In this document: one piece after another, positions 19,074 to 41,710 of the stretch | Layout of the letters: every line of letters begins with the position of its first letter | How positions within the stretch are numbered: position 1 is the first letter of the stretch | Assembly: GCF_032116555.1 (NCBI RefSeq) | Contig: NZ_CP134949.1 | Span: forward strand, 744,001 to 808,000 | Reading direction: 5' to 3' | DNA from: Halorarum halobium | Lineage (GTDB): Archaea; Halobacteriota; Halobacteria; Halobacteriales; Haloferacaceae | Length of the DNA: 64,000 nt | Translations under genes and position numbers: made by a program | The notes under the pieces: model-generated | The model's input: the letters and a program-made list of their open reading frames with translations, nothing else | Database searches by the model: none | What the model was told of the DNA's origin: nothing

Positions 19074-19280
19074 GTGGCCGATCCGAGGAATGTAACGGCG
19101 TCGTTTCTGGCCGCTCCTCTGTTCGCTGTCTCTCTTCTGTTCTACGAACATCCGTACTGTGGTGCTCCTGGACTGGGCTGCACCGGTGTAGAGGGTATTC
19201 CTTGGCCGATTGAGAACCTGCTCGGGTCGTTGCTGTTTATTCTCTCAGCGATTGTCTTCGTGACTGTGAGCAGTGATTAG
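19074..19280 (+). CDS. small 2-TM protein with Cys pair in the loop
   Basis: 68 aa, YCGAPGLGC between two hydrophobic helices. Confidence 0.6.
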   Translation: MADPRNVTASFLAAPLFAVSLLFYEHPYCGAPGLGCTGVEGIPWPIENLLGSLLFILSAIVFVTVSSD

Positions 19281-19717
19281 ACGCCGAGTTCTTCTCTCAG
19301 TTGGAAGTAGTACGGCAGTGCATAGTATGTAGAACTGTTCTGACGTGGATTCTTAGCTCTGGACTTTTTCCACCAGTTGACGACTTTACCGTTCTCCAGG
19401 CGGAGTACGAAGAGCCAGGTGATGGGGTTGTTCCCTCCTTGGCCGAATGTCGTGGTGTAGAGGCCGTTCGGTAGATCTCCGAACCTGTCCTCGAAGTACT
19501 GCTTGAAGTCGTCCTGGTCGCGGAGATCGTAGATGCTGGTGCCTTTGACAGGGCTTCGCGGCAGGTGAATCGTCCGTATAGGCTTGTACTTGGTTTTGTT
19601 CCAGAGTGTGCCGCCGTTCTTCCCGTCAATCTCTTGGATTCGTTCGAGCTCGTATTTCTGACCGGGTTTGAAGTTGTACTTGTCTATTAGTTCCTGTACT
19701 GCTTGTTCTGCGTCCAC
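19277..19717 (-). CDS. hypothetical basic protein
   Basis: 146 aa, AGGTGA SD; unusually Lys-rich for a halophile. Confidence 0.65.
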   Translation of the reverse strand: MDAEQAVQELIDKYNFKPGQKYELERIQEIDGKNGGTLWNKTKYKPIRTIHLPRSPVKGTSIYDLRDQDDFKQYFEDRFGDLPNGLYTTTFGQGGNNPITWLFVLRLENGKVVNWWKKSRAKNPRQNSSTYYALPYYFQLREELGV

Positions 19718-20082
19718 TGAGTGGTTTTCACCTGGTATTCGCTGAGTGTTGACTGGTTTCGAACACTCACTCCTGTTTTTGGGGAGAGGGCAGAGGGTGC
19801 GAACACCCCCCTCTTGTCACGTGTCCGTGGTGACGCGATTTCACGCCCACTATGTAATATAATAGAAGTGTACGAAACAGAGGTTTAAAATTACCCTGCA
19901 GATGGCATGCGTCTTCGCGGCCCTCTCCCCCTCCCGGCGCTTGATTCTGAATTTTTCTTCGAGAGGTAGAGCGGGACAATTCATTTAAAAGACGGATGGC
20001 CATACTTCGATATCGGATACTTCCATTGAGGGAGAGAAGGACTCTTTTCCATCTCCTCTCTCTTCAAGTGGGATTACCTGAT

Positions 20083-20256
20083 GTCGGGATAGCTCAGTGA
20101 TTTAGAGCGGGCCAGCGTTCCGGGATGCTAAATCCCCCTCCCCTCCCCCTTACATCGTGCATACGTAGCTCGTGAAAGCCAGCAGGCTGTGAGTTGCATA
20201 TGTACCGAGAACGGAGCGGTGGCCGTCAGTCCCCGGTTCAAATCCGGGTCCCGACG
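20083..20256 (+). ncRNA. tRNA-like RNA 1; anticodon loop replaced by ~105-nt structured domain
   Basis: Acceptor GTCGGGA/TCCCGAC, D arm GCTC/GAGC, T arm CCCGG-TTCAAAT-CCGGG, stem GGCCA/TGGCC; no 7-nt anticodon loop and no BHB seen. Confidence 0.8.
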
Positions 20257-20270
20257 GTTCACATTTCACT

Positions 20271-20385
20271 GCCTCAGTAGCTCAGCTTGGTAGAAAGCGG
20301 CCTGAAGCACGGGGTGTACGTTCGTACGTGGCCCAACGCACAGGCGAAACCCGGAACCACGCAGGTTCAAATCCTGTCTGAGGCC
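20271..20385 (+). ncRNA. tRNA-like RNA 2; anticodon loop replaced by 36-nt insert
   Basis: Acceptor GCCTCAG/CTGAGGC, TAGCTCAG..TGGTAGA D region, T arm GCAGG-TTCAAAT-CCTGT, stem GCCTG/CAGGC; no U33, long variable region. Confidence 0.78.
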
Positions 20386-20393
20386 ATCCACGG

Positions 20394-20525
20394 ATGAAGC
20401 GATTACCCAGAAAGAGATGCACAGTATGCGGAGACTTGGTGATGAAGGGAAGATGCAGCCTCAGGTGCAGTCTCACGCTGATGCTTCGCCGTGGATTCAA
20501 CATCCAGGTGAACTACAATCGCTGA
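20394..20525 (+). CDS. putative 43-aa zinc-finger microprotein
   Basis: MKRLPRKRCTVCGDLVMKGRCSLRC...; stop overlaps the proposed helicase start. Confidence 0.55.
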   Translation: MKRLPRKRCTVCGDLVMKGRCSLRCSLTLMLRRGFNIQVNYNR

Positions 20526-22218
20526 CGAGTACAACCGACTGAAGGACGTCGAAGAAGAGGTAAACTCCATCAAGAATGCCGCCGACGGCATCGAATCTGT
20601 TCTCAAGGACATCGCCGACGAACGCAACAGGGAGGTCGAGGAGACGGCTATTCTGTTCCCTGCTCGCAGGGAGATAGTCATCCAGCATCCAGAAGAGGAG
20701 ACGAAGGAGTTACTGGGGCAGCTTGCCCACCTCGTTGATTCTACGGACGATGCTTTCATGTACAAGATACGCCGCGAGGATGTCTGGCAGAGTCCGTACG
20801 AGTTCCTCGACGAACTGATTGATGATCTACGGTCGGTGCTGCCGAGGAGGTCCCCTAATCTTGAGGAGTGGATTGAGAGGCGGTGGAAGCAGGCTCACCA
20901 GTTCACTCTCTATACGCACGAGGACGGGTTCACCGTCTTGGAGGCCGAGGACGCCGAGGTCATGGAGGATGTTGCCCGTCGGAAGCTGGAACACAACACG
21001 CATTATACGAAGCATCTGTCGGATACTGAGACTCGAATCACGGAGGGCAAGGAGGCAGATGTCAAGAAGGTTCTCTACGAGGCTAACTACCCTGTTCAGG
21101 ACCGGCGTGACTTGGAGCGAGGAGAAAGCCTCGACATTGAACTGGACCAGGACCTGAAGCTGCGTCCGTACCAGGAGGAGTGGATCCGCAGGTTCACCGA
21201 TATAGGGTCCGGCGTCTTCGTCGGTCCAAGCGGTTCAGGAAAAACAGTGGCTGGAATAGGCACGATGGAAGAAATCGGTGGTGAGACACTGATCCTTGTG
21301 CCGAAGCGTGAGTTGGCGACTCAATGGAAGCAGGAATTGATTAAGAAGACCAGCTTGAGTCCGCATCAGATCGGAGAGTATCACGGGGGGAAGAAGCAGA
21401 TTCGTCCGGTTACGATCGCCACGTACGATACTGCTGGTGCGAGCCGTCACAGGAAGCTGTTCAACGAGCGGGAGTGGGGCCTAATCATATATGACGAGTG
21501 CCAGCACATTCCTGCGAAGATCCACCGTAGGACGGCTAACTTGCAGTCTAAGCACCGTTTGGGACTCAGTGCTTCGCCAGTACGGGAAGATAAAAAGGAG
21601 AAGGAGATCTTCACGTTGATCGGCCAGCCGATCGGTACGGACTGGAACTCGCTTTTCGAGGATGGTTTCGTCCAGGAACCGGACGTCGAGATCCACAACG
21701 TGCCGTGGTCCTCAGACAATCAGAGACAAAAGTACAGGAATGCCGAAGGCCACGAGAAGAGGCAAGTCTCAGCGATGAACCCGGCCAAACTGGACCACCT
21801 GAAGGACGTCCTAGAGAAGCATGAGTCGGAGAAGACGTTGATCTTCGTGGACTGGATTGATCAGGGTGAGCACTACAGCAAGGAACTCGATATCCCGTTC
21901 TACAGTGGAGAAACAACTCACAATCAGAGAGAAGAGTACATCCAGGAGTTCAAGGACGGAGACCTGTCCACACTGATCGTCTCGCGAGTAGCGGACGAGG
22001 GAATCGATCTTCCCAACGCCGAGGTAGCAATCATCGCTTCAGGGCTCGGCGGTTCCCGCCGGCAGGGTACTCAGAGAGCAGGTAGGACCATGAGGCCAGA
22101 AGGAAGCTCTCAGGTGTATGTCCTCGGCACGAAGGGATCGAACGAGCAGGACTTTGTCCAGAGACAGATGCAGCACCTGCAGGAGAAGGGTGTGAACGTG
22201 ACAGAGACGGAGGTTTAA
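20518..22218 (+). CDS. XPB/Rad25-family SF2 DNA helicase
   Basis: LRPYQ, GPSGSGKT, IIYDECQH, GLSASP, EGIDLP, QRAGRTMR. Frame stays open 80 codons upstream of the track's ATG 20758, back to ATC 20518 after AGGTGA. Confidence 0.9.
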   Translation: MADEYNRLKDVEEEVNSIKNAADGIESVLKDIADERNREVEETAILFPARREIVIQHPEEETKELLGQLAHLVDSTDDAFMYKIRREDVWQSPYEFLDELIDDLRSVLPRRSPNLEEWIERRWKQAHQFTLYTHEDGFTVLEAEDAEVMEDVARRKLEHNTHYTKHLSDTETRITEGKEADVKKVLYEANYPVQDRRDLERGESLDIELDQDLKLRPYQEEWIRRFTDIGSGVFVGPSGSGKTVAGIGTMEEIGGETLILVPKRELATQWKQELIKKTSLSPHQIGEYHGGKKQIRPVTIATYDTAGASRHRKLFNEREWGLIIYDECQHIPAKIHRRTANLQSKHRLGLSASPVREDKKEKEIFTLIGQPIGTDWNSLFEDGFVQEPDVEIHNVPWSSDNQRQKYRNAEGHEKRQVSAMNPAKLDHLKDVLEKHESEKTLIFVDWIDQGEHYSKELDIPFYSGETTHNQREEYIQEFKDGDLSTLIVSRVADEGIDLPNAEVAIIASGLGGSRRQGTQRAGRTMRPEGSSQVYVLGTKGSNEQDFVQRQMQHLQEKGVNVTETEV

Positions 22219-28584: not shown

Positions 28585-28628
28585 CCCTGCTACGAGCCTC
28601 CCCGGGCGAGTAGGGGGAGGTGGTTATT

Positions 28629-41634: not shown

Positions 41635-41710
41635 GTGGCCTCGGCACTCATAGGGCTCGTCATCGCAGGGAGCCACCCCGGCTCGGAGCGGTCGCCTCGT
41701 CATCGGCCAC
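41635..41710 (-). ncRNA. sR-tMet: box C/D guide RNA sR-tMet (Cm34 of elongator tRNA-Met)
   Basis: Terminal stem GTGGCC/GGCCAC; two GATGACGA (C/C') and two CCGA (D'/D) boxes; D guide CCCTATGAGTG complements CACUCAUAGGG and its fifth base pairs with C34. Confidence 0.88.

Follow-up and report, generated by a model that had tools for sequence, protein, structure and literature searches.

The DNA analyzed here, a 64,000-nt window of the genome of the haloarchaeon Halorarum halobium, contains two tandem RNAs that are built like tRNAs and lack an anticodon loop (RNA 1 and RNA 2, Table 1). We conclude that they are a real and probably functional tRNA-bodied non-coding cassette, and a member of no family tested. 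The case for function rests more on the recurring architecture of such arrays and on kept pairing than on raw conservation.

Table 1. Features of the array and its surroundings, in window coordinates.
Feature	Position	Strand	Basis
TATA-box-like motif, putative array promoter	19984..19991	+	same motif and position in L020, L021/L022
Leader hairpin, purine-rich versus pyrimidine-rich strand, ending beside RNA 1	20008..20082	+	z -4.4, 30 mononucleotide shuffles
RNA 1, 174-nt tRNA body without anticodon loop (G1-C72, G73)	20083..20256	+	anatomy, fold, strict scan, L021/L022 ortholog, run X2 fragment
RNA 1 insert (putative cargo): stem extension, C-rich strand, rod	20115..20219	+	fold
C-rich single strand with two CCUCC motifs	20136..20156	+	unpaired probability mostly >0.94
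Rod hairpin of RNA 1, 49 nt	20157..20205	+	fold
RNA 2, 115-nt tRNA body without anticodon loop, Thr-like acceptor, C73	20271..20385	+	Rfam RF00005, 31.6 bits
ORF for 43-aa CxxC micro-protein	20394..20525	+	translation; starts 8 nt past RNA 2
Rad25/XPB-type helicase ORF, downstream of array	20758..22218	+	Pfam PF16203, PF04851, PF00271
Divergent 146-aa basic protein, element-family marker	19277..19717	-	11 homologs at 55-82%
Right att repeat, 16 bp	41637..41652	.	end of sR-tMet C/D guide gene, Rfam RF02163
sR-tMet C/D guide gene	41637..41708	-	Rfam RF02163

The preliminary description of this DNA reported two tRNA-shaped RNAs with perfect 7-bp acceptor stems, 14 nt apart, and we confirmed this: in each RNA, the acceptor stem pairs at 7 of 7 positions and the T stem at 5 of 5. 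RNA 1 also has a complete D stem (4 of 4 pairs), a TTCAAAT T loop, G73 and a 7-nt variable loop, while the GG of the D loop is absent. Between the two strands of its anticodon stem (20110-20114 and 20220-20224), 105 nt replace the 7-nt loop. The minimum-energy fold of RNA 1 is the cloverleaf (z -4.56, with none of 200 shuffles equally stable), and it includes every part of the insert described earlier, namely the stem extension, a small hairpin, the C-rich strand and the long rod. Folded alone, the insert is only modestly stable (z -1.7). RNA 1 falls below Rfam tRNA detection even at E 10. RNA 2 carries a 36-nt insert (20305-20340) and a 15-nt variable region (20346-20360). Its D stem is 3 bp long with extra A's, so that the D-like arm ascribed to both RNAs stands for RNA 1 and is imperfect in RNA 2. 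An Rfam scan had been proposed as a check, and tRNA was the only family matched, by RNA 2 with 31.6 bits against a gathering score of 29. Folded from 20272, RNA 2 is no more stable than its shuffles (z -1.25); the forced cloverleaf reaches -39 kcal/mol versus -44 kcal/mol for an alternative fold that breaks the T arm, and the insert alone is modest (z -1.8). A strict scan for bodies with a T loop, a 5-bp T stem, 7 of 7 acceptor pairs, U8 and A14 found none in the 97-kb element beyond RNA 1 and RNA 2.

The element is a 53% GC island (G000:C1:688688-785652) in a genome of 68% GC. At its right boundary (41637-41652) the GC content changes from 53% to 70%, and an identical copy of the 16-mer found there adjoins a tyrosine integrase gene at the left end (G000:C1:688688). 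Both this element and a sibling element in genome G007 use as attachment site a 16-bp sequence that matches the end of sR-tMet, which is a C/D box guide RNA gene and no tRNA gene. Besides the integrase, the element encodes Cdc6, HerA/VirB4-like ATPases, numerous membrane proteins and the defence genes pAgo, SspFGH-like and DruA. Because a PHROGs scan of 45 element proteins returned no clear capsid gene, we regard the island as an integrative element and not a provirus. The host has 46 tRNAs by a count of ARAGORN lists; this is a complete set, and the host needs no tRNA from the element. Elsewhere in the host chromosome, where GC content is high, an Arg-like and a Gly-like gene, both tRNA-like and atypical, stand in tandem 2 nt apart on the minus strand (L005:7070-7232, G000:C1:3077070-3077232).

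By established archaeal promoter geometry, transcription of the array would start near 20010. We rejected a single 400-nt Y-like RNA closed by pairing of 19994-20001 with 20382-20389, whose 5' strand falls between the TATA box and the likely start. Leaders are also structured in metagenome contig L020 and in G007 and weak in contig L022 (z -0.6); across the arrays, structure is seen in 8 of 10 leaders and spacers, with z from -2.1 to -4.8. A related CxxC ORF follows the last RNA of the L022 array, and in both the window and L022 this ORF starts 8-9 nt past the last body; the 5' end of its mRNA would be made by tRNase Z cleavage. The helicase frame stays open and conserved for about 250 nt ahead of the first start codon, where it overlaps with the last part of the CxxC ORF (20500-20760), and the same is seen in L020; a frameshift or a non-standard start is possible. 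For the divergent 146-aa protein, we found no Pfam or PHROG match, no protein-atlas match and no match in viral or GTDB contig scans; its predicted model (pLDDT 85.8) has no clear PDB match (best Z 3.2). Upstream of its ORF, inverted G-rich and C-rich repeats flank an AT-rich core (19780-19940), with a C6 motif in 5 of 5 relatives; these repeats could be an origin or an operator.

DNA searches with the window RNAs gave short matches in 8 of 400 other Halobacteria genomes and none in 50,697 phage records. Matches of RNA 2 to the haloarchaeal tRNA arrays L010, L011 and L013 were discarded, being just the T arm and a few bases. The sole plasmid match was a 36-nt piece from the 3' part of RNA 1. 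It lies in a Halopenitus persicus plasmid (L015:14990-15040), where the 3' half of RNA 1 is joined to the upstream motif of the element, next to pAgo and DUF4238 genes that the plasmid and the element have in common, and it is a deletion remnant. Exact RNA 1 patterns had no match in IMG/VR or in GTDB contigs, in a GTDB scan that also missed this known remnant.

The 146-aa ORF was a more productive query and led to three metagenome contigs (L020, L021 and L022), of which L021 and L022 are 100% identical over the compared region. Behind the same TATA motif, L021/L022 carry four insert-bearing tRNA bodies (118-181 nt) and L020 carries two (135 and 345 nt). The inserts of the two arrays are unrelated. 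Across arrays, insert size ranges from about 30 to 280 nt, and the largest inserts (RNA F and RNA H, about 280 nt) have multi-branch folds. An 11-nt piece of the C-rich strand of RNA 1 recurs in RNA E of L020. The acceptor stem of RNA 2 is that of RNA B in L022, whose insert is unrelated. In one body of L022 (4944-5060, minus strand), a 46-nt insert sits in the D loop and the anticodon loop has 6 nt; spacers close by hold acceptor-like stems that lack T arms, and a repeated 10-nt tail comes after these stems.

The marker ORF occurs without an array at its slot in 2 of 400 genomes (L024 and L025), one of which is G007. The G007 sibling shares 37 of 121 ORFs with the element, has an integrase 96% identical and uses the same att repeat. 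About 40 kb from its marker slot lies an array of two anticodon-less bodies, a normal tRNA-Leu(CAA) and a tRNA-Tyr(GTA). This tRNA-Tyr (L031:18171-18349, minus strand) has a highly structured 107-nt intron at 37/38 with a 3-of-4 bulge-helix-bulge (BHB) helix and a C/U-rich strand, and is possibly an intermediate between intron and cargo. A structured spacer RNA of 130-140 nt with nearly invariant ends and a variable middle is common to L020:4810-4958 and L031:18655-18788, both on the minus strand (z -3.9 and -4.8). It is present in 1 of 390 other genomes and has no Rfam match, and its motif was not found in IMG/VR.

A pattern for bodies lacking U33, with 52-82-nt spacing, matched 3 of 396 genomes, namely Halorarum halobium, G090 and G348; in the latter two, the matches lie on DNA unrelated to the element. 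Similar patterns in IMG/VR matched at least 116 and at least 119 stretches among the matches listed. By automated count, single bodies with acceptor pairing at 6 or all 7 positions made up 52 of 80 fetched loci in the one set and 14 of 80 in the other, and no likeness to the window inserts was seen among the fetched loci. Many bodies in these phage loci (L069-L148 and L186-L265) have replaced anticodon arms with recurring insert types, some of which look aptamer-like by eye; Rfam named no riboswitch family in the 13 phage scaffolds scanned. At E 5-10, Rfam gave only tRNA-level matches on the window, L020, L022 and L031. A mini-tRNA with a UUCG-tetraloop anticodon arm occupies the tRNA slot of two rRNA operon spacers (L066:7869-7938, minus strand, and L067:8426-8495 in G205).

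RNA 1 has an ortholog as the first body of the L021/L022 array, with 160 of 179 columns identical (89%). Its insert is 88.9% identical there and has no other match among 342 compared loci. Several changes keep pairing: U2-A71 becomes C-G, C3-G70 becomes U-G, a U-G pair of the rod becomes C-G and, after realignment by eye, a G-C pair of the stem extension becomes A-U. Two substitutions break predicted pairs, the apex of the rod varies and the small GGAT/ATCC hairpin is not kept. This covariation rests on a handful of changes in one full-length independent ortholog (L021 equals L022). A contig of run X2 covers 20155-20253 of RNA 1 with 6 letters changed. For comparison, identity to L022 is 72% for the divergent ORF (62% at third positions), 55% for the leader and 84% for the promoter region, and other neighbors of the array have 83-93% amino acid identity. 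RNA 1 is thus well above the divergent ORF and just slightly above the promoter region and the other neighbors. Among 12 anticodon-less bodies from six sources, the acceptor and T-stem pairs are standard in 144 of 144 cases, with several pair types at most positions; this count is partly circular, as the bodies were recognized by those stems. Because the bodies resemble different tRNA types, the anticodon was probably lost repeatedly. The insert of RNA 2 has no homolog among the 342 compared loci. A contig of low depth in run X1 links 20262 with 20393 across a stretch of unknown letters, which hints weakly that RNA 2 can be dispensed with. Of the pair, RNA 1 is the better-supported working member; RNA 2 may be young or in decay.

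The preliminary description held that the RNAs are unlikely to be spliced tRNAs, as neither U33 nor a BHB was visible, and a controlled test supports this. We searched for strict or relaxed BHB motifs whose cleavage restores a Y32-U33-R37 loop, a procedure that 9 of 10 haloarchaeal intron tRNAs pass (the host elongator Met was missed by the parser). The anticodon loop (7 nt with Y32, U33 and R37) is absent from RNA 1 and RNA 2, and no strict or relaxed BHB, nor one with a 3-of-4 central helix, would restore it in either. Six of seven related RNAs also fail, and the seventh gave only artefacts inside its D-loop insert. A single excision of any length, with no BHB required, yields no canonical loop in 10 of 13 RNAs, both window RNAs included. 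ARAGORN with default settings found neither RNA in the window and labelled them Ala and Arg once introns were permitted. One could still imagine real tRNAs whose one or two non-canonical introns are excised by an unusual pathway. In RNA 1, the last part of the C-rich strand resembles an anticodon loop and could be a middle exon: this heptamer is of the Val-UAC type in RNA 1 and of the CAU type in the ortholog, stands directly before the rod and, by eye, could pair at 3 of 4 positions near the 3' junction, and the Tyr gene of the sibling array does have a 3-of-4 BHB helix. However, such heptamers are frequent by chance, and the two orthologs have different triplets although the body is the same. 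Excision in one piece gives no loop, and in the one two-intron candidate seen by eye the first intron would lack a BHB. Moreover, the only EndA of the host has a length fitting the homodimeric type, which accepts strict BHBs only, according to PMC3488258. We consider splicing into decoding tRNAs very unlikely.

Specific roles had also been suggested for the inserts. A Y-RNA-like tether for Ro60 or a tmRNA-like RNA is extremely unlikely. The YrlA model (RF02553) does score across the junction of the two RNAs, with 14.8 bits against a gathering score of 69, but any tandem tRNA pair gives this level. Although other haloarchaeal tRNA arrays contain TROVE genes, there is none in the host, G007, G090 or G306, and the Ro60-binding stem motif found beside TROVE elsewhere is absent from these arrays. 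A permuted YrlA module (T arm, acceptor-like hairpin, D arm) would require pairing between the T arm of RNA 1 and the D arm of RNA 2, where the intervening strands are not complementary. On the tmRNA side (RF00023), there is no Rfam or ARAGORN match; both RNAs have C3-G70 rather than G3-U70, D stems are present and no tag frame was found. In haloarchaeal tRNA clusters (L018:8000-8400 and parts of L016 and L017), up to three Y-RNA-like units lie just upstream of a 509-aa TROVE gene; they have a closing stem with a shared internal motif, two have permuted tRNA modules, and all are below the Rfam YrlA threshold. The suggestion of an antisense carrier gained no support: the best duplex of the C-rich strand against 2687 start regions was no better than in six shuffles, and the longest perfect matches in host or element are 13-14 nt, with none above 13 nt for the C-rich strand. 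An element gene at 28620 ranked fifth among the duplex targets, which may serve as a lead. Likenesses to a K-turn, SRP helix 8, a CRISPR handle and a c-di-AMP motif, noted by eye, were dropped, and searching the host with one short repeat motif turned up no CRISPR array.

The reading that we prefer, to which the sequences lend slightly better than even chances, is that these are non-decoding RNAs whose body would be chassis and punctuation and whose insert would be interchangeable functional cargo. A tRNA scaffold with a functional insert had been proposed before; the homologous arrays and the compensatory changes in RNA 1 lend this proposal some support. One transcript would comprise the leader hairpin, RNA 1, RNA 2 and the CxxC ORF. 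Both RNAs have t-element anatomy, with an acceptor and T arm suited to RNase P and tRNase Z beside an RNA whose end could be set, and these host enzymes would cut the transcript at the bodies, as they do at the t-elements of Haloferax. The cuts would release stable, CCA-ended, uncharged RNAs, unable to decode or be spliced, and would also set the ends of neighboring RNAs and of the CxxC mRNA. Charging is not expected, because G3-U70 and an encoded G-1 are absent from both RNAs and the anticodon is required by most synthetases. The cargo probably derives from intron-like inserts that lost the splice motif. Tentatively, and with chances well short of even, it would act as bait or decoy for a protein that binds it, displayed on a tRNA frame that resists nucleases. 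That the C-rich strand lets it base-pair with G-rich leaders of mRNAs is improbable: we favor protein binding because this strand, though open and echoed in RNA E, has no target better than shuffles among the 2687 start regions. A wider and doubtful reading is a plug-in system, in which haloarchaeal integrative elements would display exchangeable aptamer or decoy domains on tRNA bodies against host or rival defences, as the archaeal arm of an undescribed effector-RNA class also common in phages.

Two alternatives compete with the cargo reading. The bodies could be punctuation only, t-elements that free the leader, the spacers and the CxxC mRNA, with the inserts being jobless intron leftovers. 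The t-elements of Haloferax volcanii act in this way, being tRNA-like and cleaved by RNase P and tRNase Z (PMC4326828), the leaders and spacers are mostly structured, one spacer RNA is common to L020 and G007, and the position of the CxxC ORF just past the last body fits as well. We consider this rather unlikely, as two consecutive bodies only 14 nt apart free nothing between them, the insert of RNA 1 is conserved like its body and inserts grow to about 280 nt with multi-branch folds. The RNAs could also be decayed tRNA genes from a mobile cluster, which hairpin insertions disrupted and which now drift neutrally. Pseudogenes are many in archaeal tRNA clusters (PMC6333295), arrays L016-L019 contain tRNAs with inserts, units are gained and lost between elements, and in RNA 2 the D arm is damaged and the insert is unique. 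The earlier argument that paired stems speak against simple decay holds insofar as acceptor and T stems keep all their pairs despite sequence changes, while the whole anticodon arm has been replaced. The change falls in the anticodon arm in 11 of 12 bodies, the other having the large D-loop insert and 6-nt loop, and the inserts are unlike each other and unlike host repeats. Decay is unlikely for the pair; for RNA 2 alone its probability is higher.

The architecture proposed here is that of the engineered tRNA scaffolds of Ponchon and Dardel, in which a cargo RNA reportedly replaces the anticodon loop for stability and precise ends; those scaffolds are synthetic, whereas the window RNAs are natural. 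Like species 1 RNA of phage T4 (rnaC, NC_000866), which is a stable non-decoding RNA from a tRNA cluster, the window RNAs have a T arm near the 3' end; rnaC differs in having no recognizable D arm, no sequence likeness was noted, and species 2 (rnaD) is not cloverleaf-like. The Haloferax t-element, a processing signal upstream of 5S rRNA, is likewise a non-decoding tRNA-like structure that sets the ends of its neighbors as a substrate of RNase P and tRNase Z (PMC4326828), a role only predicted here. Unlike it, the RNAs described here have full bodies with a D arm and structured inserts of 30-280 nt, and occur in arrays on a mobile element. With archaeal tRNAs that have 37/38 BHB introns (Trp, Met and Arg-UCU in the host), they share extra sequence in the anticodon arm, and pre-tRNA-Trp illustrates that an insert there can carry a functional RNA (PMC3488258); the window RNAs differ in having no Y32-U33-R37 loop, no BHB and no product of a single excision. 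The "enigmatic introns" of Lak megaphages are likewise inserts that are conserved and unexplained, in the tRNA genes of a mobile genome, but they are described as introns in bacteriophage tRNAs with assignable anticodons (PMC6784885), while here no anticodon is assignable and the host is an archaeon. Haloarchaeal tRNA clusters with TROVE (PMC6333295) and YrlA Y RNAs (RF02553) resemble the present case as mobile arrays of tRNA-like genes. As described in PMC6333295, the TROVE-linked clusters hold 10-25 mostly decoding tRNAs beside Ro60, whereas the window-type arrays are short, mostly non-decoding and without Ro60. Among haloviruses, aberrant tRNA-like genes have been reported for the HF1 group and a tRNA with a 5-nt intron for HFTV1.

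In the main text of the mainly open literature searched, we found no account of archaeal arrays of tRNA bodies that lack an anticodon and bear cargo, and supplementary pseudo-tRNA lists (PMC6333295, PMC6784885) could include such genes. The window RNAs are non-decoding tRNA mimics of a new variety. As ordinary tRNA finders miss or mislabel such genes, a class of mobile-element RNAs may hide among annotated pseudo-tRNAs and intron-tRNAs. The sibling array, where a genuine intron-bearing tRNA lies beside anticodon-less bodies, suggests how such RNAs originate. With a near-complete haloarchaeal genome and the genetics of Haloferax, a direct test of processing and function is possible, unlike for most metagenomic phage examples.
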